A stretch of DNA of 64,000 nt from Vicinamibacterales bacterium (lineage in GTDB: Bacteria > Acidobacteriota > Vicinamibacteria > Vicinamibacterales > UBA8438): contig OZ253581.1 of assembly GCA_965263055.1 (NCBI GenBank), positions 1,071,794 through 1,135,793 of the forward strand, given 5' to 3'. Every line of letters begins with the position of its first letter. Position 1 is the first letter of the stretch. Positions 10,682 to 29,527 of this stretch are shown here, in pieces. Both the position numbers and the translations under genes were made by a program. The notes under the pieces are model-generated. The model was not told the DNA's origin, made no database searches, and was given only the letters and a program-made list of their open reading frames with translations.

Positions 10682-12130
10682 TTACTCGTCGTTCAGCAGG
10701 GGGTCCGACAGGAGGCCGGAATCCGATCCCGAGTCGAGATCGTCCGGCAGCTCCGCCACCTCGTCCCGCGCGTAGTCCGGCGGCGCGCCCGGCCGCGACA
10801 GCAGCTCGAAGCGCGTCTGCTCCTTCAGGAAGGCAAGCCTCACCATGCCGGTGGGGCCGTTCCGCTGCTTGCCTATGATGATCTCGGCAATCCCCTCGTT
10901 CTCCGGCGTCCGTTCGTACATCTCCTCCCGGTAGATGAACATCACGACATCGGCGTCCTGCTCGAGCGCGCCCGACTCCCGCAGGTCGGAGAGCTGCGGC
11001 CGGCGATCCGTCCGCGCGCGCGACTCCGGCGCGCGGCTGAGCTGCGAGAGCGCGACGACCGGCACGTTCAGTTCCTTCGCCAACTGCTTCAGCGCACGGG
11101 AGATGGAGGCGAGCTCCTGGGTCCGGTTCTCGAACCGGCCGCGCCCCTGCATCAACTGGAGGTAGTCGATGATCAGCAGGTCGAGACCATGCTCCGCCTT
11201 GAGGCGGCGCGACTTCGCGCGCATCTCGAGCACGCCGGCGCCGGCCGAATCGTCGATGTGCATCCGCATCTCCGCCAGCCGTCCCATCGCGCCGGTCAAG
11301 GCGCCGTAGTCCGCCTGGGTCAGCAGACCGGTCCGGAAGCGGTGCGAATCGACCCGCGCCTCGGACGTGAGCAGGCGCATGAAGAGCTGTTCCCTCGCCA
11401 TCTCGAGACTGAAGACTCCGACCGTCCCATCCGCCTGCGCCACGTTGCGGCCGATGTTCAGCGCCAAGGCGGTCTTCCCCATCGACGGACGGGCCGCGAT
11501 GATGATCAGGTCGGCCTGCTGGAGACCCGCCGTCATCTCGTCGATGTCGTCGAAGCCGGTCGCCACCCCGGTCACGAAGCTCTGCTGCGACTGCAGTCGT
11601 TCGATCGTGTCGCCGCCCGCTTCGACCAGCTTGGCCATGGAGACGAACCCGCTCGAGATGCGGTCCTCGGCGATCTCGAAAATCTCCTGGCCCGCCTGAT
11701 CGAGGATGTCGTCCGCCGTCTGATCGGAGGCGTACGCGGTGGCCGCGATCCGGTTCGCCGAGTTGATCAGGGCGCGGAGGGTCGAATGCTCCTTGACGAT
11801 ACGGGCGTAGTGATCCACGTTGGTGGATCGGGGCACGCCGTCGGCGAGGGACGAGATGTAGGCGGCGCCGCCCACCTGTTCGAGCAGGCTGGCCCGGCCG
11901 AGCTCCGCTCGAAGGGTGACGAGGTCGATCGGATCGCCCCGCTGGGAGAGGACGACCATCGAGTCGAAGACCCGGCGGTGGGCGTCGCGGAAGAAGTCGT
12001 CCGAGTCGATCAGCTCCGCCGCGATGTCGATGGCGGGGTTGTGGACCAGGATGGCGCCGAGCACGCTCCGCTCCGCTTCCAGGTTGTGCGGGAGCACCCG
12101 CTCGGCCTGTCCTGCGACGGTCGGCGCCAT
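10682..12130 (-). CDS. dnaB: Replicative DNA helicase DnaB
   Basis: PHNLEAERSVLGAILV N-domain and Walker A ARPSMGKTALALN. Start set at ATG 12130, preceded by GGGAGGAACG. The track start at 12244 would overlap rplI. Confidence 0.95.
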   Translation of the reverse strand: MAPTVAGQAERVLPHNLEAERSVLGAILVHNPAIDIAAELIDSDDFFRDAHRRVFDSMVVLSQRGDPIDLVTLRAELGRASLLEQVGGAAYISSLADGVPRSTNVDHYARIVKEHSTLRALINSANRIAATAYASDQTADDILDQAGQEIFEIAEDRISSGFVSMAKLVEAGGDTIERLQSQQSFVTGVATGFDDIDEMTAGLQQADLIIIAARPSMGKTALALNIGRNVAQADGTVGVFSLEMAREQLFMRLLTSEARVDSHRFRTGLLTQADYGALTGAMGRLAEMRMHIDDSAGAGVLEMRAKSRRLKAEHGLDLLIIDYLQLMQGRGRFENRTQELASISRALKQLAKELNVPVVALSQLSRAPESRARTDRRPQLSDLRESGALEQDADVVMFIYREEMYERTPENEGIAEIIIGKQRNGPTGMVRLAFLKEQTRFELLSRPGAPPDYARDEVAELPDDLDSGSDSGLLSDPLLNDE

Positions 12131-12176
12131 CGTTCCTCCCGCGGCGCGGACGCCCTGTCCGCCCCGGCTCAAGCGG

Positions 12177-12722
12177 TCAGGATTCCTCGGTCTCGGACGG
12201 CGTCTCCGGCGTCTCGCCGGCAGGCTCGGCCGCCGCTGCGGCATCCTCCGCCGGCGGCGGCACCGGCAGGCGGTCGTAACCCTCCGCCACGACGTTCACC
12301 ACGACCTCGGCGGTCACATCGTGATGCAGCTTGATCGGAACGTTGAACGCGCCCAGCACCTTGATCGGCTCGCGCAGGCGGATCTGCTTCCTGTTGATCT
12401 CCACCTCGGCGCCTTCGAACGCTTCCGCGATGTCGGCCACGGTGACCGAGCCGTACAGCGTCCCGGTCTGGCCCACGCGCCGCACGATCGTGCATTCGAG
12501 CCCCTGCATCCGGCCCGCGACCGCCTCGGCGGCGACCCGTTCGTCCGCTTCGCGCGCCTCCGCCAACGCCCGCTCCCGCTCCACGTGACGCTTGCTCCCC
12601 TCCGTCACCTGCAACGCCAGCTTCTGCGGAAGGAGGTAGTTGCGCGCGTAGCCGTTCGCGACGGTCACGACATCGCCGCGCCGGCCGAGGTTCTCGACGT
12701 GGTTCCTCAGGATGACTTGCAT
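12177..12722 (-). CDS. rplI: 50S ribosomal protein L9 (with acidic/Pro-rich C-terminal tail)
   Basis: 181 aa beginning MQVILRNHVENLGRRGDVVTVANGYARNYLLPQKLA. rpsF-rpsR-rplI synteny. Confidence 0.9.
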   Translation of the reverse strand: MQVILRNHVENLGRRGDVVTVANGYARNYLLPQKLALQVTEGSKRHVERERALAEAREADERVAAEAVAGRMQGLECTIVRRVGQTGTLYGSVTVADIAEAFEGAEVEINRKQIRLREPIKVLGAFNVPIKLHHDVTAEVVVNVVAEGYDRLPVPPPAEDAAAAAEPAGETPETPSETEES

Positions 12723-12759
12723 CGTTGCCCTCTATGGATGACCGATCCGTCCACGGCGA

Positions 12760-13071
12760 TCAGTCGACGACGTACGGGATCAACGCGAGCTGCCGCGCCC
12801 GCTTGATGGCCCGGGTCAGCATCCGCTGACACTTCGCGCAGGTGCCGGAGATCCGCCGCGGCTGGATCTTGCCCCGATCGCCCAGCGCCATCATCAACAT
12901 CCGAACATCCTTGTAGTCGATGTAGTCGACCTTGTCGACGCAGAAGCGGCATACCTTGCGGCGGCGTGCGCCGCCCCCCCGGCGTGGGCCGCCGCCGCTC
13001 CTGCCCGCACTGCTGCCCCTGCCTGCACTACCGCCCCGCCCGCCGCGCCGACCGCCACGCTCATCGCTCAT
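12760..13071 (-). CDS. rpsR: 30S ribosomal protein S18 (with RGG-rich N-terminal extension)
   Basis: 103 aa with the core [16 protein letters not shown]...[34 protein letters not shown]. Confidence 0.9.
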
Positions 13072-13634
13072 GACTTCTTCTCCTCATCCGTCTGCGTATC
13101 CGCCGGTGCATCCGCCGGCGTGACCGGCTGTGCGTTCACCTGCGTATCCACTTCCGCATCCGGCTGCGCATCCGCCGGCGCCGGCGCTACCGGCTCCGCG
13201 TCGCCCGCCGCCGGCTCCACCGCGGCCGCCGCTACCGGTGCGGGGCTCCCGCTCCCGCCCTTCGCGTCCTTCCTGGCCCGGCGGCGGTCGTGCCGGCCCT
13301 GCCGCCGTGCGCGCTTGTGCTCCGCCTTCCGCAACACTTCGTCCACCCGGATCAGCAAGTGGCGCAGCAACTGCTCCATGACGCGGAGCCGCCGCTCCAG
13401 CTCGGTCACCATCTCGCCCGGACCGGTGATCAGGGCGATCACGTAGGTCCCTTCGCGGTGGCGGTTGATCTCGTAGGCGAGGCGGCGGCGGCCCCAGTTG
13501 TCAGTCTTGTCGACGGTCCCGCCCAACTGCCGGACGATCTCGGAGATCCGTTCGTGCAGTTCGTTCACGCCCTCGTCCGGCACCGCCGGACTGATGACGT
13601 AGGCCAATTCGTACTGTCGGTCTGCTTCGCTCAT
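13068..13634 (-). CDS. rpsF: 30S ribosomal protein S6 (long low-complexity C-terminal tail)
   Basis: 188 aa with the N-terminal [11 protein letters not shown]...[20 protein letters not shown]6 core. It overlaps rpsR by 4 nt. Confidence 0.9.
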
Positions 13635-17954: not shown

Positions 17955-19904
17955 CTAACGGCCAGCGTCGTCAATCTTTCGCTGGACCACGTCCGGATCG
18001 ATCCCGTCGCGGTCGCCGTTCAGCGCGCGTTCCCACGCCGCGATCGCCTCGTCGACTCGGCCGAGACGGTGCAGCAGGTCGCCCAGGTGGTCCTGCACGA
18101 CCGAGTTGCTCTGCAACTGATCGCCCGCCGCCCGCAGTGGCGCCTCGGCGAGGTCGAGCCGATCCAGCTTGAAGTACGCCCAGCCGAGGCTGTCGAGGTA
18201 CGACCCGTTGTGCGGATCCATCTCGATCGCCCGCTCGATGAGCGCGACCGATTCGCTCAGCCGCTCCCCCCGCTCGGCCAGCATGTAGCCGAGGTAGTTA
18301 AGGGCGGCGGCGTGCTCCGAATCCTCCTCGATCACTTCGCGGAACATCTGCTCCGCTTCGGCGAAGCGGCCGGTCTGCTCGAAGACGGAGCCCAACTGGA
18401 ACGTGATCGACGTCACCGCGGGGAACCGCTCGCGCGCCGCTTCGAGCAGCGCGATCGCGTCGGCGTGGCGGTCATGCTGGCCGTAGTAGCCCGCCAGCGC
18501 GAGGTGCGTGCGGACATCGTCCGGGTTGCCCTCCAGCACCGTGCGGAGCGCCTGCCCGCCCGCCTCCACGTCGCCGCTCCGCGCCAGCAGGTCGGCGTCG
18601 ATCATCTCGACCGACAGGTTGTCCGGATTGTTCACGCGCGCGCGGCGCAGAGCGTCCCGCGCATCCTGATCGCGGTCCGCGTCGACATAGGCCTGCGCCA
18701 GGCGGGCCAGGAACCGCACGTCTGACGGCATCAGCGCGACCGCCCCCTCGTACACGCGGATCGCGCCGTCGCTATCCTCCAGCGCCTCGTACGCGAAGCC
18801 GAGCCGGTCGAACACGGTCACCAGCCGCTCGGGGCGGACCTCCTCCGAAAGAGCCCGCGCCAGGATCGGCGCCAGCGTATCGACCATCCGCTGGTACTCG
18901 CGCCGCCGCTCGAAGACCTGCGCCAGCGTCGATGGCCCGCGCAACCCGTCCGGCTCCAGTTCGATCAACCGCGCCGCGGCGGTCTCGGCCGCGTCGAAGT
19001 TGTTGGTCTCCAGCTCGACTTCCGCCAGCAGCCGCCAGGCGAGGGCGTCGCGCGGACGCATCTCGATCAGGTCTTCGATCACGCCGCGCGCGCGTGCCGG
19101 CTCGCCGGCTTCGAGGAGCGTGCCCGCGAGCCGCTGCCGGACGCTGGCGTTGCGCGGATTGAGTGAGGCGGCCCGCTCGTAGGCCTCGGCCGCGTCGCTC
19201 CACCGGCGGCGGCGCTCGTACATCTCGCCCAGCCGCGCGAGCCCCTGGTACGTCGGACGGCTGTTGACGACCGCCTCCTCGAGCGTCGCCAGCGCCTCGT
19301 CCGGCCGCCCTGCCTGCTCGTACGCCTGCGACAGCAGGAGGCGCGACGGCTGGTAGCCGAGCTGATCCTTCGCGAGCGCCTCCAGCAGGTCGATCGCATC
19401 GTCGTTCTCACCGGCCCGGAGGTAGAGGCGGGCCAGCGTCAATTCCACCTGCAGGTCGGGAACCACCGTGTCGCGCGCCTGCTCCATGTGGGCAATCGCC
19501 TGGTCGACACCCTCGGGCGTCGCCTCGCGGGACATCGCCGCCGGCGCAAGGTTCAGCCCGAGCACCCGGTGCGCGCTCACGTTGGAGGGGTCACGCTCGA
19601 TCGCCTCGTTCGCGGCGGCGAGCGATTCGGTCTCCCGGCCGGCGCGGGCATAGAGCCCGGCCAGCTCGGCCAGCGGCTCGCCCGCCTCGGGGTCGAGGCG
19701 GGCCGCGTCGCGGAGCGCCTGAATGGCGCCGTCGGTGTTGTCTTCGCCCTCGAGATGGCGGCCCAGCATGAAGAGGCGGTACGCCTCGGCGCGATCGCCC
19801 GTATCTGCGTCGGGCGCGGAGGAAGTTTGCGCGGCGGCGGGCACCCCGGCCATCGGGGCGAGCAGCAGCGCGACGCCGAACAGGACAAAGGTCGGCCAGC
19901 GCAT
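17955..19904 (-). CDS. Secreted tetratricopeptide-repeat protein
   Basis: Start set at MRWPTFVLFGVALLLAPMAGVPAAAQ (signal peptide; cat 19902-19904). The body is made of many A/L/Y-rich 34-aa TPR-like units. Confidence 0.8.
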   Translation of the reverse strand: MRWPTFVLFGVALLLAPMAGVPAAAQTSSAPDADTGDRAEAYRLFMLGRHLEGEDNTDGAIQALRDAARLDPEAGEPLAELAGLYARAGRETESLAAANEAIERDPSNVSAHRVLGLNLAPAAMSREATPEGVDQAIAHMEQARDTVVPDLQVELTLARLYLRAGENDDAIDLLEALAKDQLGYQPSRLLLSQAYEQAGRPDEALATLEEAVVNSRPTYQGLARLGEMYERRRRWSDAAEAYERAASLNPRNASVRQRLAGTLLEAGEPARARGVIEDLIEMRPRDALAWRLLAEVELETNNFDAAETAAARLIELEPDGLRGPSTLAQVFERRREYQRMVDTLAPILARALSEEVRPERLVTVFDRLGFAYEALEDSDGAIRVYEGAVALMPSDVRFLARLAQAYVDADRDQDARDALRRARVNNPDNLSVEMIDADLLARSGDVEAGGQALRTVLEGNPDDVRTHLALAGYYGQHDRHADAIALLEAARERFPAVTSITFQLGSVFEQTGRFAEAEQMFREVIEEDSEHAAALNYLGYMLAERGERLSESVALIERAIEMDPHNGSYLDSLGWAYFKLDRLDLAEAPLRAAGDQLQSNSVVQDHLGDLLHRLGRVDEAIAAWERALNGDRDGIDPDVVQRKIDDAGR

Positions 19905-19978
19905 GAGGAATCGATTGTTCCACAGGTGGGGCGGCGGAGTCCACGTCGCGGTCGCGTCACAGTTACAATGGCGGGGCG

Positions 19979-20188
19979 ATGCCCATCCACCCCGAGCTGC
20001 TCGCGATCCTCGCCTGCCCCGCCTGCCGGACACCGGTCGCCCTGACGGCGGATGGCTCGGGCCTCCGTTGCGCCCGGTGCCGCCGCGTCTATCCGATCAA
20101 GGACGACATCCCGGTGATGCTCGTCGACGAGGCGACCATCGACGGAGCGCCGGCCGACCAGGCGACGGACGACACCTCGACGTCATGA
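19979..20188 (+). CDS. Trm112/UPF0434-family small zinc-ribbon protein
   Basis: 69 aa, LLAILACPACRTPV...LRCARCRRVYPIKDDIPVMLVDEA. Confidence 0.8.
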   Translation: MPIHPELLAILACPACRTPVALTADGSGLRCARCRRVYPIKDDIPVMLVDEATIDGAPADQATDDTSTS

Positions 20189-21408
20189 CGCTGGCGCGCT
20201 TCGAGACCGCCGCCTGGTGGCTTCTGCCGCTCTTTGTCTTCGTGCTGCCGCTCTCCATCGCCGCCTCCGGCATTCTGCTCACCGCGCTGCTCGCCGTCTG
20301 GATCGGTCTTCTCGTCACCGCGGGCGAGCGCCCTTCCGTCCCGCCGTTCTTCTGGCCGCTCGCCGCGTACGCCGGCTGGACGCTCGTCACCGTCCCGTTC
20401 TCGATCGATCCGGCGGCCAGCCTGATCGAATCGCGCGAGGTGTTGCTCTACCTGAGCGTGCCGGTCGTGTACCGCCTTGCGCGGGGCGAGCGCGCCTGGT
20501 CGATGACGAATGTCGTGCTGACGGCGGGGGCCCTCACCGCGGCGATCGGCATCGTGCAGTACGGCGTCCTGGAGTTCGACAACCTCGGGCGCCGGCCGAG
20601 CGGTTCGATGGGGCACTACATGACGTACGCCGGGCTGCTGATGCTCGCCATCGGCACCGCCGTGGCGCGCGTCGCGTTCGGCGCGCGCGATCGCCTCTGG
20701 GCGGCGCTGATGCTGCCGGCGCTGGTCGCGGCGCTCGCGGTGACGCTGACGCGCGGCGCGTGGATCGGCGCCGTCGCCGCGGTGGGCCTGCTGCTGGTGC
20801 TGCGCGACTGGCGTCTGCTGTTGCTGGCGCCGGTGGCCGCGGCCGGCCTCTACTTCGTTGCGCCTGCCGCCGTCACCGACCGCGCGCTGTCGATCATCGA
20901 TCCGGCGAACCCCACGAACCGCGACCGGGTGGCGATGCTGACGGTCGGCGCCGGCATGGTGCGCGACCATCCGCTCACCGGCGTCGGGCCGGAGATGGTG
21001 CTGCGACGCTACGGCGAGTACCGCCCGGACAACGCGGTGAACGACGTGAACCCGCACCTGCACAACGTCCCGTTCCAGATTGCCGCCGAGCGCGGGCTGC
21101 CGGCGCTCGCGCTCTGGGGCTGGTTCGTCGTCGCCGTCGTAATCGATCTCGCCCGGCGCTTCCGCCGGCCGGAGACGCGTACGCTCGCCGCCGCCGGTCT
21201 CGCCGCGGTCGCCGCGATGCTCGTCGGCGGCCAGTTCGAATACAACTTCGGCGACTCCGAGTTCCTGCTCCTCTTTCTCGTCCTGATAACGCTCCCGGCC
21301 GCCGCCAGCGCAACGCTCGGTGCGCCGGCCTCCCCTGGTGCGCCGGCCTCCAGGCCGGCATCGGGTACACCGGCATCCCCCGACACCCCGGCATCCCGCC
21401 CCCACTGA
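20185..21408 (+). CDS. O-antigen ligase / Wzy_C-family polytopic membrane protein
   Basis: Starts at ATG 20185, in ATGA overlap with the Trm112 stop. About 10 TM helices, with LTLTRGAWIGAVAAVGLL and a periplasmic-loop pattern typical of the Wzy_C family. The C-terminal PAS-rich tail is encoded by a repeat element. Confidence 0.7.
   Translation: MTLARFETAAWWLLPLFVFVLPLSIAASGILLTALLAVWIGLLVTAGERPSVPPFFWPLAAYAGWTLVTVPFSIDPAASLIESREVLLYLSVPVVYRLARGERAWSMTNVVLTAGALTAAIGIVQYGVLEFDNLGRRPSGSMGHYMTYAGLLMLAIGTAVARVAFGARDRLWAALMLPALVAALAVTLTRGAWIGAVAAVGLLLVLRDWRLLLLAPVAAAGLYFVAPAAVTDRALSIIDPANPTNRDRVAMLTVGAGMVRDHPLTGVGPEMVLRRYGEYRPDNAVNDVNPHLHNVPFQIAAERGLPALALWGWFVVAVVIDLARRFRRPETRTLAAAGLAAVAAMLVGGQFEYNFGDSEFLLLFLVLITLPAAASATLGAPASPGAPASRPASGTPASPDTPASRPH
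21319..21360. repeat. REP-like GC-rich repeat unit (inverse orientation relative to the 28855 copies)
   Basis: GGTGCGCCGGCCTCCCCTGGTGCGCCGGCCTCCAGGCCGGCA. It equals the reverse complement of 28855-28892 apart from a 3-nt insertion. It contains the palindrome GCCGGCCTCCAGGCCGGC. Confidence 0.7.
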
Positions 21409-21412
21409 CCTC

Positions 21413-23065
21413 TTGCGCCGACATCACGCCCTCGCGGCAGCGATCTTCCTGGCCCTCACCGTTCTCCACACCTGGCCGCTGGCGAGCGATCCGGCCCGGA
21501 TGTCACGCATCCACGACGACGAGTGGCTCAATGCGTGGGCGGTCTCCTGGGTCGCGCACCAGTTGCCGCGCGACCCGCTTCACCTGTTCGACGCCAACAT
21601 GTTCCATCCGGCCGATCAGGCGTTCAGGTACACCGAGCCGCTCGTTGTCCCGGCGATCATCGGCGCCCCGTTTCGCTGGCTCGGCGCCTCGCCCCTCCTG
21701 ACGCACAACCTGCTCGTCCTCGCCGGCTTCCTGCTGACCGCGCTGGCGATGTACCGGCTGGTGGTCCATTGGACCGGCGATCCCTGGAGCGGCATCCTGG
21801 CCGGCGCGCTGCTGACGTTCGGCACCGCGATGCTGACGCGCACCGCGCACATTCAGTTCCTGCATTTCTATGCGTTTCCCTTCGCGGTGCTGGCCCTCGA
21901 TCGGCTGCTGACCGGCGGGCGGGCGCGCGATGCGGCGTGGGTCGGCGTCTGGGTGATCGTCGCGGCGATGACCTCGGGGTATCTCGCCGTGCTCGTCGTG
22001 ACCACCCTCGGCGCCGCGTTCGTCATGCGGGCCGGCGACTGGTGGGGACGGCGCGGGGCCGGCATCGCCGCGCGGCTCGGCGCCGCGGCCGCCGTGACGG
22101 GAGCCGTGCTCGCCCTCCTGATGCGGCCCTACCTGGGGGCGGACCTGCGACGCAGCTCGGTCGTCGATGCCGACAGCATCGGCGCGTCCCTGCAGGCGTT
22201 CCTGCGGACCGCGGCCGATCTGCACTACGCGCTCTGGAGCGAGCGGTTCTGGAGCGGGGATGCGCCGAGCGCGATGTTCCCCGGCTTCGTCGCGATCGCC
22301 CTGGCGGGCGCCGCACTCGCCGCGCGCCGCCGCTTCGCGCCCCGCGGCATCCGGCGGATGCTCACAGGCATCGGCGCCACCGGCATCGTCCTCTCTCTCG
22401 GCATGCTGACCCCGGTCTACGGCGCGGTCGCCATCGTCATGCCGCCGCTCCTCGGCCTGCGCTCGCCGTCCCGCTTCGCGGTGCTGGCGGTCTTCGCGCT
22501 CGCGGCGCTCGCCGGCATCGGCTGGAGCGCCGTGCGCGCGCGCCTGAACCCGCGCTGGCACACCGCCGCCGCCGCGAGCCTCCTCGTGCTCGCCACCATC
22601 GAGAGCCTGCACGCGCCGATCCCGTACCGGCCGCTGCAGCGGAACGAATGGTATCCACCGATCTACCGGGCACTCGAGACGGCGCCGGCCGGACCGATCG
22701 CCGAGCTCCCGCTGCACCGACCCGGTTTGTTCCAGCAGAACGCGCGCTATCTGCTGGCCTCCACGCAGCACTGGCGGCCAATCCTCAACGGCTTCGGCGG
22801 GTTCCGTCCGGCCGGCTACGCGCTGGCCGCCCGGCGCCTCGCGACCTTCCCCTCCGACAGCGCGGTGGACTACCTGCGGTCCGTCGGGGTGCAGACGGTG
22901 ATCGTGCACGGCGACCGGTTGCGAACCTTCCAGTTCCACCGTCTGCTGCGGCTGGCAGCCCGCCAGCCGGACGTCCGGCTGGAGGCGGAAGTCGGCCGAG
23001 ACCTGGTCTACCGCATCGCGCCACAAGACGGCCGTGAAACGGTTACCATCCGGCCTGGTCGATGA
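21413..23065 (+). CDS. GT-C-like polytopic membrane protein (start uncertain: TTG 21413 or track start 21320)
   Basis: N-terminal TM followed by the acidic loop motif HDDEWLNAWAVSW. It has many TM helices and a C-terminal soluble region. Architecture resembles polyprenyl-phosphate-sugar-dependent glycosyltransferases. Confidence 0.5.
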   Translation: MRRHHALAAAIFLALTVLHTWPLASDPARMSRIHDDEWLNAWAVSWVAHQLPRDPLHLFDANMFHPADQAFRYTEPLVVPAIIGAPFRWLGASPLLTHNLLVLAGFLLTALAMYRLVVHWTGDPWSGILAGALLTFGTAMLTRTAHIQFLHFYAFPFAVLALDRLLTGGRARDAAWVGVWVIVAAMTSGYLAVLVVTTLGAAFVMRAGDWWGRRGAGIAARLGAAAAVTGAVLALLMRPYLGADLRRSSVVDADSIGASLQAFLRTAADLHYALWSERFWSGDAPSAMFPGFVAIALAGAALAARRRFAPRGIRRMLTGIGATGIVLSLGMLTPVYGAVAIVMPPLLGLRSPSRFAVLAVFALAALAGIGWSAVRARLNPRWHTAAAASLLVLATIESLHAPIPYRPLQRNEWYPPIYRALETAPAGPIAELPLHRPGLFQQNARYLLASTQHWRPILNGFGGFRPAGYALAARRLATFPSDSAVDYLRSVGVQTVIVHGDRLRTFQFHRLLRLAARQPDVRLEAEVGRDLVYRIAPQDGRETVTIRPGR

Positions 23066-25071
23066 GCGATCCGACACGCACGCGTGAACGGCGGGCGACG
23101 ATTGCCGTCTGCGCCGGCGTAACACTGCTCGCCGCCACGCTCGCATTCTGGTGGACCACGACGAACCGCTACCGGCTGACCGGCGACGAGCCGCACTACT
23201 TCATCCTGGCAGCCAGCCTGCTGCGGGACGGCGATGTCGACGTCCGCAACAACTTCGATGAGGATGCCGCCACGGGCGAGATCTATGGCCCGATTTCAGG
23301 CCGACACGTCCAGACGTACAACGGCCGAGAGTACTCGAATCATGCGCCCGGCCTGAGCGCTCTTCTGGTCCCTCCGTTTGCAGTCGGCGGGACGGTCGCA
23401 GGCCGGCTGCTGCTCTGTCTCCTGATCACGCCGATCCTCGGCTGGGCCTGTTGGCGCTGGCTCGAAGGACGCGCGCCACCGCGAGACGTAGCACTCGCTA
23501 TCGCAGGCGTACTGCTGTGTCCGGTGATACTGCTGGGATCCGGACAGGTGTACGGCGACCTCCTGGCCGGTGTCGTGATCGTGGGGCTGGCCGTCTGGTT
23601 GTGGAACCGTGTGGGTCGAGATGAGACAGCCGCGTCACAACGACGCTCGCCCCTAGCGTGGATGCTCTTCGGCTTGGTCGCAGGTCTCCTCCCCTGGCTG
23701 CACATGAAGTATCTCGGCGTCACCGCGCTGTTCGGTCTGCTCGCGGCTTGGCAGGTCTGGCGTGAACGACCGTGGCGCTACGTGAATGCACGCAGCCCTT
23801 GGTGGGGGTACGCTTCAGCGGGTGCATTTCTCCTGATTGGCCCAGCCACGTTCCTTGCCTCTCAGGTGGCAACCCATGGCCGACCGCTTGCCGGCTTGGG
23901 AGGTCAAATGACGGGAACCCCATACCTCCTGGCCTTGGAGTATCTGATCGGCGAACACCTCGATCAATCACACGGCCTCTTCTGGCACCAGCCGCTGTTC
24001 CTGTTCGGACTCATCGCGCTCGGCTGGATGATCAGAGTGCGGCATCCCCTCGTGATCCCTTGGCTACTCCTCTATGGCTCGCTGATGGCGCCGCCCGCGC
24101 TACTGGCCGAATGGGGTGGCATGCCACTTGGACGGTTCAACTGGGGCGGCATCTGGCTCTGGCTCCTTCCGATAGGCTGGTGGATGGGGGCGGAACGAGC
24201 CAACCTTGAACGATATGTCCGTCCGATGGTGCTGGCGGCGTTCGCGTACCAAGCGATTCTGGCGTGTCGCTGGATTCCGAATCCGACGGATCTCTTACTG
24301 TCTCCGCGATCGAGCCTGGTCTGGGGGCGCGATTCACTGTTCCCGCTGCCGGTCCGCTACATCTTTCCCCACTTCTATCTCAGCGCCGGAGACGGTTGGT
24401 GGGTCGTACGTTACCTGGAGTATCTGCCTAACTTGATCTGGGTGACAGCGGCCGTGCTGATGATCGTCACCGGATGGATGTGGAGCGCCGAAGGACGGCG
24501 TCGCCTGCGCCCGGTGTGGGTCAGCGGCGTTGCCGTGGCGGCGCTGCTGCTGCCGGTCGAACCAACCGCCGACCGGGAAGCACCACGTGACGACGGGCTT
24601 CATGACCCGATGGTGCAATCAATTGGGAGCACGTTCGCCCGCCGGTTCGAAGCGGAACGAATGACGCCGATGCAGGCAGCGTCCCGGACTACGCGTGAGG
24701 ACCCCAACGCCAGCGATGGGTACGCTCGGGACACTGCTGCAGCCTTCGAAAGTATGGACCGGTTCGTGGTTTTTGGCCCCTACCTGCGCCTCGATTCTGG
24801 CCGGTATCGCGTCGAGGCGACACTGCGCCTCGCCGAACCCACCGAGCTCAGAGTTGCCGGCCGGTTTGAAGTAACGGCATCGCGCGGGCGCACCGTCCTG
24901 GGCAGCGTCTTGGTCGCTTCCGACCGCCTGCCGACCGATGGCAGCTACACGAAGGTCGCGGTCAGCTTCGACGCCACGGAACCGTTGGACGATGTCGAGT
25001 TCCGGGTCGCCGCCACACCGGGGGTTGATCTCCTGATCGACTGCTTCGACCTGGTTCCGGTGCTGCCATGA
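23062..25071 (+). CDS. Large polytopic membrane protein of the GDEPHY-motif family, with C-terminal soluble domain
   Basis: 669 aa. The first loop is LTGDEPHYFILAASLLRDGDVDVRNNFDEDAATGEIYGP. It is a paralog of 26796-28739 and overlaps the upstream gene by 4 nt. Confidence 0.6.
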   Translation: MSDPTRTRERRATIAVCAGVTLLAATLAFWWTTTNRYRLTGDEPHYFILAASLLRDGDVDVRNNFDEDAATGEIYGPISGRHVQTYNGREYSNHAPGLSALLVPPFAVGGTVAGRLLLCLLITPILGWACWRWLEGRAPPRDVALAIAGVLLCPVILLGSGQVYGDLLAGVVIVGLAVWLWNRVGRDETAASQRRSPLAWMLFGLVAGLLPWLHMKYLGVTALFGLLAAWQVWRERPWRYVNARSPWWGYASAGAFLLIGPATFLASQVATHGRPLAGLGGQMTGTPYLLALEYLIGEHLDQSHGLFWHQPLFLFGLIALGWMIRVRHPLVIPWLLLYGSLMAPPALLAEWGGMPLGRFNWGGIWLWLLPIGWWMGAERANLERYVRPMVLAAFAYQAILACRWIPNPTDLLLSPRSSLVWGRDSLFPLPVRYIFPHFYLSAGDGWWVVRYLEYLPNLIWVTAAVLMIVTGWMWSAEGRRRLRPVWVSGVAVAALLLPVEPTADREAPRDDGLHDPMVQSIGSTFARRFEAERMTPMQAASRTTREDPNASDGYARDTAAAFESMDRFVVFGPYLRLDSGRYRVEATLRLAEPTELRVAGRFEVTASRGRTVLGSVLVASDRLPTDGSYTKVAVSFDATEPLDDVEFRVAATPGVDLLIDCFDLVPVLP

Positions 25072-25093
25072 CGTGGCGTCTCGCCAGCCCCTT

Positions 25094-25987
25094 CTAGATC
25101 GGTTCGACGTAGACGGTCAGGACACGCACGCCCAACTCGCGCGCGTCGTCCCCCACGCCCAACTCGGAGGGGACGAAGGTCTGATCGACGAGCAGCTCCA
25201 GTCGGACCACGTCGTCGGATCCGAGCTCGGCCGTCGTGAGCGTTCGATCAATCATCACGGGGGCGGAGGTGCGGAGGGACAGTTCCTCCAGCATCTGCTC
25301 GCCGATCCGGAGACTGAACTGCTGCGGCGTATCGAACACATCGGGTCGTCCTGCCACCTCCAGCATCAGGCGCGCGTCGCCCCTGGGATTCTGGAAAGAG
25401 ACCACGCCGTGGCCGGTAGACCAGCGCCAGGATACCTCGCCGTTCGGCTGAGACTCGACCCCGTGCCAGCCTTCCTCGTAGACCAGGAAGCTGCTCTCGT
25501 GTTGCGGCGTGAACGTGATGGAGGCGGTGCGGTAGGCGTTCTGGCCGATATGGTCACCTGCGAGCGCCAACCGCTCACCGGTCGACGCCAGGTGCAACCC
25601 GACGGCAATCTCTGCTTCCCCGATATACGGATAGAGCGGCGCCATGATCCGGCGCGTGTACCAGATGGTCTGTCCCGGCTCCCACTCGCTCGTCGGCGTC
25701 GCCGGCCGATGATCGTCACTCCAGATCCGCTCGCCGTTGTTGTCGAGCACCTGGGCGAAGACGGTGTAGTCGTCCGTCATCGGCACGAGGTCCGGCAATA
25801 CATCGAATCTAAACGTCATCTCGAGCGGTCCGCCGACCGGCACGCTCGTCCGGTCCAACTGCAGGTTGACGCGCGCTACCGGCGAACCGGACGCTCCGCC
25901 GCCACAGGCGGTGGCGGGCAGTAGCGACGCCGCCAGCACGATCGCTGCGGCTACGGTCCGTAGTCCGCTGATGAAGTGGTGCCGCAT
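25094..25987 (-). CDS. Lipoprotein of unknown function
   Basis: Start at MRHHFISGL (cat 25985-25987) with lipobox LLPATAC. The beta-rich body has no recognised motif. It is the last gene of a minus-strand GT-C/GT2 operon. Confidence 0.55.
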   Translation of the reverse strand: MRHHFISGLRTVAAAIVLAASLLPATACGGGASGSPVARVNLQLDRTSVPVGGPLEMTFRFDVLPDLVPMTDDYTVFAQVLDNNGERIWSDDHRPATPTSEWEPGQTIWYTRRIMAPLYPYIGEAEIAVGLHLASTGERLALAGDHIGQNAYRTASITFTPQHESSFLVYEEGWHGVESQPNGEVSWRWSTGHGVVSFQNPRGDARLMLEVAGRPDVFDTPQQFSLRIGEQMLEELSLRTSAPVMIDRTLTTAELGSDDVVRLELLVDQTFVPSELGVGDDARELGVRVLTVYVEPI

Positions 25988-26053
25988 CAACAAGGAGCAT
26001 ACCATTGGCTCCACGACGCTGGAGCTTGTGAAACCAAGGGATCGCGCGCGACG

Positions 26054-26734
26054 TCAGAAGCGGTACTTCAGAAGTGTCCAGACCGCCTGGAAGAAGTCCT
26101 TCCAGGAGATCTTCTTCCCCTCCGCAAAACTCCGCCCCTGGTACCGGATTGGCACCTCGTGAATCGGGATCCCGCGCTTCAGGATCTTGGCGGTAATCTC
26201 CGGCTCGAAATCGAAACTGTTCGACACGGTCTCGATCTGCTGCAGTAACGTCCGGTCAATCAGCTTGTAGCACGTCTCCATGTCGGTAAGCGACGAGCCG
26301 TAACAGCAGTTGGTAAGCCAGGTCAGCAGGCGGTTCCCGACGCGGTGACGGATCGCCATAGCCGGGCGCCCGGCCGCTAGACGCGAGCCGTACACCACCT
26401 GCGCCTTCTCCTTCACCGCAGCGTCGAGCAGCCCAGCGTAGTCGGCCGGATCGTACTCGAGGTCGGCATCCTGCACGATCACGTAGTCGCCGGTGGCGCG
26501 AGCGAAACCGGCCCTGAGCGCCGCCCCCTTCCCCTGGTTGGCGGGCTGCAGCAGCAGGGTCATCCCGTCCCCCTCGCGCGCCGCCCGCTCCCGCAGCAGC
26601 TCGCGCGTCCCGTCGGTGGAGCCGTCGTCCACGACGATCACCTCCGTATCCAGATCGACCGCCGCAACACGGTCGAGCAGTTCGATGATCGTCGCCCGTT
26701 CGTTATAGACCGGGATCACAATGGAAAGACGCAT
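26054..26734 (-). CDS. Family-2 glycosyltransferase, polyprenyl-phosphate sugar synthase-like (Dpm1/ArnC/GtrB type)
   Basis: From [26 protein letters not shown]...[11 protein letters not shown]...FDFEPE. About 226 aa and soluble. Start is cat 26732-26734. Confidence 0.85.
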
Positions 26735-26795
26735 GGCCAGGAGTGCAAGACGCCGCAGACGGTCTACTGCCCCCGTGGTGACATCGAAGACCGGA

Positions 26796-28739
26796 TCAAG
26801 GAGCTGCTCGACGGGCCGCAAATCGACCGCACGGGTCCGGCGCAGCCGGGTGGCAGGCGCCGCCGAGGTCTCCGGGACCATCAAGTAGGCCGCCACGGCC
26901 GGCCTGCCGGGCATCCCCGACGCGCCGGAGATCGATGTAGTCGATCTCGAAGCCCTGTCTGCCGCGCACGCGGAACTCCACGTCCCGGAAGCTCCGGTCG
27001 GCATGGAACGACAGTGTCAGGAACGATGCCCTCGACCCGGACACTCGGAAAGCGCGTCTAGCGATCTGGTTGCCGCCCCGAGAGGAAACGACCTCCAGGA
27101 CTCCGGCTGTCGGTACTCCCGGCCGCACGGCCGCCACGATCTCGTACGCGCCCGGATCGAGGGAAACCCACGGTCCGGCCACGGCGAACGCGTGCTCCCG
27201 GTCCTGCCGGCACACAAGACCGTTACTGGCGTGCGATTGCGGATAAGCCGTGCAGCGTCTCGGCATGTGCTCCGCCTCGTAACGGCGCAGCGGCGATGTC
27301 GTTTCGCGCCCCAGGGGATCATCGACTGGCAGCAAGAACAACGCGGCGACGGCGGTGGCGAGAGCAGGCAGGCACCGCCACCGGCGCAACCAGCCCGCGG
27401 CGACCAATGCCAGAGCCGCGCAGGCCCAGACGACGTTTGGGGCATACCCGATGTTGCCGTGCGGACCAAGCTTCGGCAACGACAACATTATCGGGACAGG
27501 AAAGAGGGATGGCTGCCACAGGTCAGGAGCGAACAGCCCATTAAAGAGCCGCTGCGGGGCGGGAATCCAGGAGACCGCGAGCGCCGCCTGATACGCGATC
27601 CCGGCGAGCAGGACCAGCCCTACGGCGTACGGCGAGCGCCACCCCCGCAACTCGCGAACGGCGATCCCAACAGGAACGAGCCAGAGCCACATCGCCGACC
27701 AGCCGAAGCGCCCGGCAGGGCCCACGTGGCCACCGTAGGGAATCTGCTGCAGCGCGTTCGGGACGACGACCGACGCGTACAGCAGCAGCCAAGGCAGCAC
27801 CAGCGGATGCCGGCGGCGGATCATCCAGCCCAGCGCCACGAGGCCAGACAACAGGAGCGGCTGCGACACGAACATTCCGTGCACCTGATCGAGATGCTGA
27901 CCCAGTACGAGCTCGATTGCGCGAGCAACATCAAAGTTCAGCTCCCCACCACCGCGGCCACCCAGGAGATCTCCGAAGTACGTCCAGGAGAAGGTGGCGA
28001 ACAGGGCGGGTCCAGCCAGGAAGAGCATGGCGAACGTGGCGTACATCACGGGTGTAAACCGCACCCGGTGGCGCCACAATTCGCCAGCTCCCATCGCCGC
28101 GAGCACTGCCGTGGGCGCGTAATACTTCACATGCAGCCAACACAGGAGTCCCGCGAAGAGCCAGTAGACGCACCAGGAACCGGCGTGCGCGCGCGGGCCA
28201 GTTCGCCACAACCAGCTCGCCAATGCGAAGATCGCCACCCCGCCGGCAAGGTCCGGGTAGAGCTGCGACGAGCCGAACACGACCGGGCTGCACGCCAGCA
28301 CGCCGAGCGTGGCGAGCATCGCGTTGATGGGGTCGAGGACCGTGCAGCACCAGCGATAGACTGCCACGCCGAGGGTCAGCGTCAGCAGCAGGACGAGCGA
28401 GACTCGCGCCCCGGCGGTGCCGTCCAACCCGAAGGGAATTGCCAGAATGACGCCGAGTCCCGGCATGTGCTGCGGTCCACCAGTGCGCATCAAGGCGTGT
28501 GGCTGCATGGGAGCCGGGAAGATCTCCCCGTTGATTGCGTCGTGCTGGTAGTTGTTGCGGACATCGAAGTCGAAGTCGCGCAGTACGCTGGCTGCAATGA
28601 TCAGGTAGTGCGGCTCGTCACCGTCGACGGCAAGCGGCTGGACTGTCGCGAGAACGGCCGCGGGCACGACCACTAGTACGGCCAACAGCACTAGGAGTGG
28701 CAGTCGTGGGAGCCGTCGGCGCTCGGCGGACCTGTACAT
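26796..28739 (-). CDS. Large polytopic membrane protein, GDEPHY-motif family (paralog of 23062-25071)
   Basis: Start at [19 protein letters not shown] (cat 28737-28739). It shares [38 protein letters not shown] and [39 protein letters not shown] with the paralog. Confidence 0.6.
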
Positions 28740-28843
28740 TACGATAGGATACCGTGGCCTATGATCCACCGCTAGCCAGCCAGCGGTGGGGGTGCACGTC
28801 CCTCCGAGGCGGTGAAAGAGGGGCAGGTGCTGCCGTAAGGGAG

Positions 28844-29527
28844 ATGCACCTTCATGCCGGCCTGGAGGCCGGCGCACCAGGGGCCGGCGCACATCACGGC
28901 CGGTCTGGAGGCCGACGCACCAGGGGCCGGCGCACCGTCGCGGTCGCACTGGCCGCCCTTGCCCTGACCGGCGCGCGTAGTGCGGCAGGCGCGGAGTCGT
29001 GGAGCGCCACTTCCGGGGACGTGCACGTTCGCTGCCGCCTCACGGTCGGCGGCAGCTTCGATGTAGTCACATCCGCACTCTCCGGAACGCTTGAGCGCGC
29101 GACGCCGGACGGCGCGGACTACTCCGGCGAACTCCGGGTAGACCTCGCGACACTCGACAGCGGCATCGGGTTGCGGAACTCCCATCTCCGCGACAACTAC
29201 CTCGAGGTGGAACGAGGCCCGGAGTTCCGGCATGCCGTGCTCTCGGACATCGTGCTCGACGATCCGCTGCCCGCCAGCGCCGGCCGCCACGAGACGGCGT
29301 TCTCGGGAACACTCTCCCTGCACGGCGTGGAGCGCCCGGTCGAAGGCGAGGCGGAGCTGCGCCGCCGCGACGGTCGGATGCAGGTGGAGGCGACGTTCTC
29401 CATCAGCCTGGAAGCGTTCGACATCCCGCCGCCGCGGTACCTGGGTGTCGGCGTCCGCGACACCGTGGAGATCACCGTCACGTTCGATGCGGCGCGCGCT
29501 GATGAGCCGTCGGGCGCCACGCCATGA
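28844..29527 (+). CDS. YceI-like periplasmic (polyisoprenoid-binding-like) protein
   Basis: DLATLDSGIGLRNSHLRDNYLEVERGPEFRHAVL and the overall beta-barrel pattern are typical of the YceI family. The N-region of the signal peptide is encoded by two tandem repeat units, so the start is uncertain. Confidence 0.65.
   Translation: MHLHAGLEAGAPGAGAHHGRSGGRRTRGRRTVAVALAALALTGARSAAGAESWSATSGDVHVRCRLTVGGSFDVVTSALSGTLERATPDGADYSGELRVDLATLDSGIGLRNSHLRDNYLEVERGPEFRHAVLSDIVLDDPLPASAGRHETAFSGTLSLHGVERPVEGEAELRRRDGRMQVEATFSISLEAFDIPPPRYLGVGVRDTVEITVTFDAARADEPSGATP
28855..28935. repeat. Two tandem REP-like units (28855-28892 and 28898-28935)
   Basis: TGCCGGCCTGGAGGCCGGCGCACCAGGGGCCGGCGCAC and GGCCGGTCTGGAGGCCGACGCACCAGGGGCCGGCGCAC, separated by 5 nt. 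Confidence 0.7.

Follow-up and report, generated by a model that had tools for sequence, protein, structure and literature searches.

GDEPHY proteins, a widespread unnamed family of GT-C-fold membrane proteins with a carbohydrate-binding-module-like domain, and their paralog pair in a Vicinamibacterales genome

Introduction

Glycosyltransferases of the GT-C class perform extracytoplasmic steps in the synthesis of envelope glycans, and include drug targets (Emb) as well as serotype determinants (Gtr, GT136). The founder of GT136, ORF12 of Citrobacter youngae O1 (GenBank MH325883.1), has been proven experimentally. According to Kelly et al. (2024, PMC11127046), it is a protein of 652 aa in which a GT-C domain is followed by a carbohydrate-binding module (CBM) at residues 503-652, and its residues D31, E34, H106 and R349 are essential. 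Here, we report two genes, further called paralog A and paralog B, whose products carry the motif GDEPHY and have a comparable layout. They lie on a stretch of 64,000 nt from a Vicinamibacterales bacterium (GenBank assembly GCA_965263055.1, contig OZ253581.1, positions 1,071,794 to 1,135,793 of the forward strand), further called the window, in which all positions below are counted.

Both genes encode inner-membrane proteins of the GT-C fold, and we describe their paralogy, motif conservation, fold, remote homology, CBM-like domain and gene context. They probably act as glycosyltransferases that add a lipid-linked sugar to an envelope glycan on this membrane's periplasmic side. The family they belong to is widespread, unnamed and unstudied; it is a new branch inside the well-known GT-C class, not a new kind of system. 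The host genome is complete, consisting of a single contig of 4.35 Mb, and the GC content of the window is 63-74%. Its relatives carry the names Vicinamibacterales or Vicinamibacteraceae, within the phylum Acidobacteriota.

Paralogy and motif conservation

Paralog A (P0001) is located at 23062-25071 on the plus strand and encodes a protein of 669 aa, as defined by its open reading frame (ORF) and translation, a 32-sequence alignment and an AlphaFold2 (AF2) model. A predicted GT-C membrane domain with 13 transmembrane (TM) helices covers approximately residues 1-500, followed by a linker and the C-terminal CBM-like domain. Paralog B has the same architecture and is located at 26796-28739 on the minus strand. 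Its ORF (P0002) is open over 26796-28949 and would give 717 aa from a GTG at 28949. Since the homologs begin near the ATG at 28739 in the 32-sequence alignment, this ATG is taken as the start, giving 647 aa, and the longer GTG version was rejected. This length agrees with the approximately 647 aa of the initial annotation, which had been made from the DNA letters alone.

BLASTP aligns A with B over their whole length, with an identity of 39% across 638 positions (E 2e-94), which is much more than chance would give. By sequence they are genuine paralogs, as the initial annotation had proposed, and every peptide string quoted there occurs verbatim in the two translations. The convergent arrangement it described, with both genes facing each other across a family 2 glycosyltransferase (GT2) gene and a lipoprotein gene, was confirmed. 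Based on a family hidden Markov model (HMM), which paralog B matches with 541 bits, A and B are the only two members in the window and in the whole 4.35 Mb genome. Paralog B keeps every invariant family residue of the 32-sequence alignment. The idea that one of the two is a decaying copy was dropped because both retain all invariant residues and contain no stops.

At the 3' end of paralog B (26796-26920, minus strand), the CBM-like domain is followed by a low-complexity tail of about 40 aa, rich in Gly, Arg, Ala and Pro, which has no counterpart in most homologs. This may be a real disordered tail or an untranslated read-through of GC-rich spacer.

The GDEPHY motif of A (G41-Y46; 23182-23199, plus strand) stands at the start of the predicted first periplasmic loop, and that of B was placed at 28605-28622 on the minus strand by translation and BLASTP alignment. 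Two further motifs of A fall in predicted periplasmic loops as well, being H-L-D-Q-S-H-G (H299-G305; 23956-23976, plus strand) between TM7 and TM8, and G-R-F (G357-F359; 24130-24138, plus strand) past TM9. GDEPHY is identical in 32/32 close homologs. Conservation was also counted in 148 family representatives clustered at 50% identity, with G41 present in 121/121, D42 in 121/122, E43 in 120/122, P44 in 116/122, H45 in 114/122 and Y46 in 116/122. For the second motif, D301 and G305 are both found in 119/119, P311 in 118/119, H299 in 96/119 and Q302 in 95/119, while R358 of the G-R-F is kept in 114/116. When a diverse alignment of 36 sequences (A2, 28% mean column identity) is considered, the only invariant columns are the GDE of the first motif together with D287, G291 and R346, which are the D and G of the second motif and the Arg. 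GDEPHY is therefore near-invariant, and the lack of conservation among homologs that the initial annotation had named as speaking against its proposal was clearly not observed.

Fold and remote homology of the membrane domain

The AF2 model of paralog A, built on the family alignment, has a mean predicted local distance difference test score (pLDDT) of 78.8 and a predicted TM-score (pTM) of 0.70. Among the 50 matches listed for this model in a Foldseek search against the PDB, all membrane proteins are GT-C enzymes, which match its membrane part: EmbC (7bve, the best match, E 2.4e-4), AglB (3wak, 7e9s and 3waj), ALG9 (9s6u), ALG12 (9s6t) and PimE (9dm5). Next to these structural matches, a profile-profile comparison was made with HHalign, using a family profile of 228 sequences and a profile of 29 PMT_2 sequences (PF13231, ArnT-like) from the genomes of relatives. 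The two profiles match over 138 columns (Prob 95.3, E 2.2e-8), with GDEPHYxxxAxxLLxDGD being set on DSDEAFYAEAAREMVExGDW, the first-loop DE-x-x-Y motif of ArnT-like proteins. Reversing one of the profiles raised the E-value to 0.34-0.55, and reversing both brought it back to 1.5e-8. A shallow alignment (A1; effective number of sequences 2.6) compared by HHalign with the single sequences of the PMT_2 protein of the window and of the upstream gene product P0006 gave no match.

AF2 secondary structure and hydropathy give 13 hydrophobic helices with the N-terminus inside, and the basic N-terminus and cytoplasmic loops obey the positive-inside rule. In this predicted topology, GDEPHY, H82, Y164, H214, HLDQxxG...QP, GRF (R358) and the CBM-like domain all face the periplasm. 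GDEPHY (41-46) directly follows TM1 in the model and is succeeded by helices 43-56 and 62-71. The protein thus has the features of a GT-C fold, with a helix count in the range of 7-13, a cytoplasmic N-terminus, a conserved acidic first loop and similarity to solved GT-C structures. The position of DEPHY in the first periplasmic loop, as first put forward from the sequence, fits this topology. Its likeness to a GT-C catalytic loop is supported by Foldseek, by HHalign with its reversed controls and by gene context; the fold and profile searches suggested at that time were run (Foldseek and profile-profile HHalign) and returned a GT-C fold and PMT_2 homology.

C-terminal CBM-like domain

The C-terminal part of both proteins had been described as beta-rich, which holds for a domain of about 145 aa that can now be identified further. 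In paralog A, Foldseek delimits a CBM6/CBM35-like beta-sandwich at approximately residues 526-669 (24637-25068, plus strand), and alignment with A places the corresponding domain of B, running from RRYEAE to IDYIDLRR, at 26922-27287 on the minus strand. In the model of A the strands span residues 527-667, with a pLDDT of approximately 86-93 over most of 571-660 and lower values at both ends. The best matches are found with CBM6 structures, namely 5fui (E 3.5e-5, target-normalised TM-score (TMt) 0.64) and 1uy0/1uxz (TMt 0.66-0.67), followed by CBM35 (2w1w/2wz8) and CBM4. No CBM_6-type Pfam match was returned by hmmscan for this domain. Based on the predicted structure, the domain has a CBM6/CBM35-like carbohydrate-binding fold. 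Residues R528, E530, A531, E532, G572, P573, G580, Y582, E646 and D660 of A are conserved in the 32-sequence alignment.

This module (GPY..L..G.Y ... EFR ... D.I.L) is also a portable domain without a Pfam match. It ends membrane proteins that have neither GDEPHY nor a match to the membrane domain of the family, namely the product of the next gene in Pseudomonas nitroreducens, a Herbaspirillum protein of 554 aa and an enterobacterial one of 619 aa. A DUF2079 protein and a putative S-adenosylmethionine (SAM) methyltransferase likewise carry it at their end. The occurrences outside the family are L042:9890-11755, L045:13794-15458, L131:1480-3339 (minus strand), L059:9915-11258 (minus strand) and protein P0251.

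Family size, distribution and naming

A HMMER scan of 1.84 billion representatives retrieved 1,703 clusters (50% identity) when matches up to E 1e-3 are counted, and 478 when the limit is set at E<=1e-10. In a pattern scan with one genome per species, a confirmed relative was found in at least 579 species, distributed over Acidobacteriota, Chloroflexota, Pseudomonadota (including Yersinia, Undibacterium, Thiothrix and Noviherbaspirillum), Leptospira, Actinomycetota, Prochlorococcus, Nitrospinota and Patescibacteria. Members in Pseudomonas, Vibrio and Herbaspirillum were found through protein searches. A scan of 401 genomes of the family to which the Yersinia member belongs gave one further match only, which is confined to the CBM-like module. 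No match was obtained for the Yersinia gene in E. coli genomes (blastn) or for the Pseudomonas member in phages and plasmids (tblastn). On the Rhizobium plasmid pRCCGE531b, the GT-C candidate P0381 has no GDEPHY, and no part of the plasmid matches the family profile.

Nearly all of these proteins are annotated as 'hypothetical', and a few UniRef clusters have been named automatically as 'RgtA/B/C/D-like domain'. Neither A nor B matches Pfam-A, NCBIfam at its cut-offs or PDB sequences, singly or as a 32-sequence profile. In addition, hmmscan found neither PMT_2 (PF13231) nor PMT (PF02366) in A, B, 30 close homologs and 20 distant members, at E-values up to 10. NCBIfam model NF047440 ('LA_3751/LA_3752 family putative glycosyltransferase'), which has a cut-off of 200 bits, does not match paralog A and gives 12.2 bits (E 0.057) for paralog B. 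Distant GDEPHY members score 17-53 bits against it, all under the cut-off, the best of them reaching 42-53 bits (E 1e-11 to 1e-14) over approximately 300 residues. This Leptospira model represents a sister subfamily and is the sole curated model that detects the GDEPHY family, itself being only 'putative'; no paper on LA_3751/LA_3752 was found in the literature. The initial annotation, which could attach no characterised family name to the motif, therefore stands with respect to Pfam, NCBIfam and PDB, with the sub-threshold NF047440 scores and some RgtA/B/C/D-like names as a qualification. For a family of 1,703 clusters that is invisible to Pfam, the motifs GDEPHY and HLDQxxG plus GRF, together with the CBM-like module, would allow thousands of genes to be annotated.

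Approximately half of the 80 species loci sampled for gene context, mostly from Acidobacteriota, hold members of a deep branch with much longer proteins, of which only the first ~320 residues align to the GDEPHY profile. Examples are L112:7530-9890 and 10980-13364, and ORFs of approximately 900-1100 aa in order-level relatives. Broken GDEPHY genes with in-frame stops or frame changes, i.e. pseudogenes, are present in several genomes that belong to the family or order of the host (G012:C1:3869020-3870870, G036:C1:2025559-2026709, G060:C4:64446-65673 and G021:C1:1213957-1214319). They suggest that the family is dispensable and subject to turnover.

Gene context and locus variation in relatives

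Neighbouring genes were counted within 8 kb in the 80 sampled species loci. A complete set of genes for an arabinofuranose donor is present in 6/80 loci (Yersinia, Undibacterium, Thiothrix, Noviherbaspirillum and two metagenome-assembled genomes), and a GT2 of the type found in the window in another 6/80. In Pseudomonas nitroreducens, the family gene follows genes for GtrA, a DprE1-like flavin adenine dinucleotide (FAD) oxidase and a DprE2-like short-chain dehydrogenase/reductase (SDR), in a Wzm/Wzt O-antigen locus of the GDP-rhamnose type. In Herbaspirillum rubrisubalbicans, it adjoins UbiA, DUF212, GtrA, DprE1-like and DprE2-like genes. Both family genes lie inside D-rhamnan-type O-antigen loci. 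The proteobacterial gene set corresponds to the mycobacterial polyprenyl-phospho-arabinofuranose pathway, as well as to the 'three-component' systems for pentofuranose reported by Kelly et al. (2024, PMC11127046). Different branches of the family hence pair with different lipid-linked-sugar synthases, which is the pattern expected of GT-C transferases. The context indicates candidate arabinofuranosyltransferases in the O-antigen loci of Pseudomonas, Herbaspirillum, Yersinia and Undibacterium.

A FastTree phylogeny of 83 membrane domains places A and B in sister subclades of one Vicinamibacterales clade, with a local support of 100. The arabinofuranose-linked proteobacterial group lies near this clade, and the arabinofuranose-pathway label is clustered on the tree, none of 500 shuffles giving a value as low. 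Genomes of the same genus carry 3-4 GDEPHY copies each. In one sister genome the order is P0006-[A,A,A,B'(+)]-GT2(-)-YceI-porin and in another P0006-[A,A,B',A]-YceI-porin-PMT_2, with the copies in tandem; a GT2 ortholog with 89% identity adjoins the GDEPHY array in a sister genome. Between the flanks P0006 and YceI, the present genome has one A, one inverted B and the lipoprotein gene, compared to four tandem GDEPHY genes in each of the mapped sisters. The segment between these conserved flanks is rearranged across the genus (window 23062-28739 versus L063 and L065). Such differences in GDEPHY gene content between sister species make the locus a likely hot spot of surface-glycan variation.

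The identity between A and B is 43% in the membrane domain and 37% in the CBM-like domain. Among paralogs and orthologs the latter is usually the more diverged of the two, e.g. 49% versus 75% in the membrane domain, or 58% versus 79%. This faster divergence fits a conserved chemistry combined with a diversifying recognition of the acceptor. As members of sister subclades that differ most in this domain, A and B probably differ in the site or the glycan to which they add the sugar.

Neighbouring genes in the window

The GT2 gene is located at 26054-26734 on the minus strand (PF00535, E 5e-35), 62 nt downstream of paralog B, and forms a co-directional run with B and the lipoprotein gene. Its product of 226 aa likely starts at the Met of MRLSIVIP at 26734. 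A longer ORF of 316 aa starts at 27004 and overlaps the end of paralog B (26735-27004, minus strand), and its first 90 residues look like a non-coding shadow. In NCBIfam it comes closest to AglJ, ArnC, dolichyl-P-hexose transferase and PpgS, each of them a polyprenyl-phosphate sugar synthase, with scores under every equivalog cut-off. Judged from these sequence relationships, the GT2 is likely a Dpm1/AglJ/ArnC/PpgS-like polyprenyl-phosphate sugar synthase, making the lipid-linked donor. The lipoprotein gene (25094-26014, minus strand) encodes 306 aa with a lipobox-like ...ATACGGG and has no family match in Pfam or NCBIfam; tblastn gave no match in the 80 related loci, and the gene is not at this position in two sister genomes. 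The Arg-rich ORF on the opposite strand (25073-25924, plus strand) shadows the lipoprotein gene and was rejected as a gene.

Upstream of paralog A, gene P0006 (21320-23065, plus strand) encodes approximately 545-580 aa, its start being uncertain, and its stop overlaps the ATG of A. Its product matches the PMT_2 profile in HHalign (Prob 96.2, E 2.4e-9), and its AF2 model (pLDDT 79, pTM 0.83) resembles STT3, AftD, DPY19 and ArnT in Foldseek (E 1.5e-7 to 3e-4, query-normalised TM-score (TMq) 0.42-0.57). The first loop carries HDDEW as an invariant motif, the protein ends in a small alpha/beta domain, and it has no Pfam match. Based on these results, P0006 is a further GT-C enzyme that differs from the GDEPHY proteins, and its gene shows translational coupling with paralog A. 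In 20/80 species loci, all from Acidobacteriota, a homolog and a GDEPHY gene lie no more than 8 kb apart. The plus-strand gene run is headed by a gene for a Wzy_C (O-antigen ligase/polymerase-like) membrane protein (19723-21408, plus strand; PF04932, E 1.9e-20), the position of which is conserved in a sister genome. A PMT_2 GT-C gene was also found in the locus by a Pfam scan. At least four GT-C enzymes and one lipid-sugar synthase are thus encoded in the locus. Neither a UbiA-type synthase nor a flippase was seen among the genes at approximately 17.9-35.1 kb, no search aimed at UbiA having been made in the window or the genome.

Proposed function and alternatives

For the function proposed here, we infer the topology, the catalytic roles of single residues, the donor and the acceptor. 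The cytoplasmic, Dpm1/ArnC-like GT2 downstream of B would attach a sugar to polyprenyl phosphate, the product would be flipped to the periplasm, and the GDEPHY enzyme would move the sugar to a growing or finished envelope glycan. By analogy with known enzymes, D42 at the start of the first periplasmic loop might be the catalytic base acting on the acceptor hydroxyl. E43, H45 and Y46, together with D301 of the second motif, might likewise shape the sugar pocket, and R358 might, with conserved histidines, hold the donor phosphate. The C-terminal CBM6-like beta-sandwich would then bind the acceptor polymer.

Several points weigh against this proposal. Foldseek gives weak matches for the membrane domain (E 2e-4 to 1e-2, TMq 0.26-0.32), the model of A is of low confidence at residues 185-192, 351-357, 440-449 and 500-525, and the HHalign match spans just the N-terminal third of the membrane domain. 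ArnT, PMT and GT136 served as analogues for the residue roles, which were not read from coordinates. The GT2 lies on the strand opposite to A and such a gene is near the family gene in only 6/80 related loci, so the donor link is circumstantial. There is no GtrA-type flippase gene in the window, and the only above-threshold GtrA match of the genome is approximately 1.9 Mb away. More generally, the function of the GDEPHY family has been deduced solely from sequence, predicted structure and gene context.

The same data can be read in other ways. The proteins might be GT-C oligosaccharyltransferases (OST) or polymerases, similar to PglB/AglB or TfpW, that move a preassembled glycan from polyprenyl diphosphate to a protein or a repeat unit. 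AglB structures are indeed among the fold matches, the same gene run codes for a Wzy_C protein and for another GT-C whose fold matches are STT3-like, and TfpW provides a case of polymerisation and transfer by a single GT-C (10.1101/2020.04.19.049825). We nevertheless regard this as unlikely: the neighbouring donor genes all make monophosphate-linked single sugars (the GT2 here; UbiA, DprE1, DprE2 and GtrA in Proteobacteria), the proteins have no WWDxG-type OST motif and no OST periplasmic domain, and a CBM as C-terminal domain points to a glycan acceptor.

In a second alternative, the proteins are ArnT- or PMT-like enzymes acting on a non-glycan acceptor, such as lipid A or the Ser/Thr of secreted proteins, in which case the beta-domain would be MIR-like or structural. 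The ArnT/PMT_2 superfamily is the sole sequence-level link of the family, and the RgtA/B/C/D-like name of a few UniRef clusters points in the same direction. We consider it quite improbable, as the C-terminal domain resembles the glycan binders CBM6/35/4, the proteobacterial members sit in ABC-transporter-type O-antigen loci, and multi-copy arrays with fast-diverging CBMs fit a diversification of glycan sites better than a single lipid A modification.

It is highly improbable that the proteins are a non-catalytic flippase, scaffold or chain-length regulator with a GT-C-like bundle and a merely binding or structural GDEPHY: the fold matches are weak, the family function is only deduced and no separate flippase is encoded in the window, but the acidic, His and Arg residues of the periplasmic loops are nearly absolutely conserved across phyla, in the way typical for active sites, GDEPHY falls on the catalytic DE motif when aligned with PMT_2 proteins, and a family member is present even in loci that have a GtrA flippase.

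Starting from the preferred reading as periplasmic envelope-glycan transferases, a broader picture can be put forward tentatively. GDEPHY may be a distinct and unstudied GT-C family, unclassified in CAZy and present in at least 579 species, the proteobacterial branch of which comprises O-antigen D-arabinofuranosyl (pentofuranosyl) transferases working with DprE1/DprE2/UbiA/GtrA outside Actinobacteria. In Vicinamibacterales, the family might have been recruited to hexose donors and expanded to variable arrays of 2-4 paralogs, with fast-evolving CBMs retargeting the same chemistry to different sites. If so, the locus would serve a serotype-like diversification, in a soil and marine phylum that is uncultured.

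Comparison with known systems

Compared to ArnT and the other PMT_2 proteins (PF13231; GT83/GT39 clan, GT-C_A), the family has profile-profile similarity over the region TM1-loop1-TM4 and a 13-TM topology with the N-terminus inside, as predicted here. A polyprenyl-phosphate monosaccharide donor made by a GT2, which is ArnC in the case of ArnT, is also proposed for the GDEPHY proteins. The family differs by a second motif of its own, HLDQxxG...QP, and by the GRF arginine, and its C-terminal CBM-like domain takes the place of the small periplasmic domain of ArnT, whose structures are not among the 50 listed Foldseek matches of A.

TfpW, the pilin D-arabinofuranosyl transferase of Pseudomonas, is likewise a Gram-negative GT-C enzyme and uses a polyprenyl-P-arabinofuranose donor provided by DprE1/DprE2/GtrA-like genes (10.1101/2020.04.19.049825). 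It differs by its DDX motif, 11 TM helices, C-terminal tetratricopeptide repeat (TPR) domain and linkage to pilA (10.1101/2020.04.19.049825), whereas GDEPHY proteins carry DEPHY together with a CBM, their linkage being to genes for O-antigen or envelope glycans.

EmbA/B/C and AftD (GT53 and relatives) also combine a GT-C domain with one or more periplasmic CBMs, which bind the acceptor glycan in these enzymes. EmbC (7bve) is the best match of the membrane domain, and proteobacterial family members are encoded together with the same DprE1/DprE2/UbiA donor pathway. The Emb/AftD proteins are however larger (approximately 1,000-1,400 aa), have another CBM placement and DDx-type motifs, and give no sequence-level match to A or B; the genes of the window also have no neighbours of the decaprenyl-phosphoryl-arabinose (DPA) pathway.

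ORF12 of GT136 resembles the GDEPHY proteins in its size of approximately 650 aa, its GT-C domain, in which TM1 is followed by a small helical domain, and its C-terminal beta-rich CBM (503-652 versus ~526-669). In both, an Asp in the first loop precedes a Tyr by four residues (D31...Y35 in ORF12, D42...Y46 in A), and an Arg is found near residue 350, being the essential R349 in ORF12 and the conserved R358 in A. The similar positions of the essential R349/Y350 (PMC11127046) and of R358 are an analogy only. ORF12 acts as the third component of a periplasmic glycosylation with a lipid-linked sugar, and the proteobacterial GDEPHY members are encoded in analogous pentofuranose-donor operons. As for the differences, ORF12 is described with 11 TM helices (13 predicted here), has E34 where the family has H45, and shows a CDD 'EpsG' match that is lacking in GDEPHY proteins. 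Its donor synthase is a UbiA-type phosphoribosyl synthase, compared to the hexose-type GT2 synthase of the window. No Citrobacter or Stenotrophomonas proteins are among the best 120 relatives of the Yersinia member. Together with the description of ORF12 (E34/H45, helix count and EpsG), this weakly sets the GDEPHY family apart from GT136. The GT136-style layout of a GT-C domain followed by a C-terminal CBM is nonetheless found in the modelled GDEPHY proteins, with acceptor binding as a putative role, and the architecture of the family already has precedents in both GT136 and Emb.

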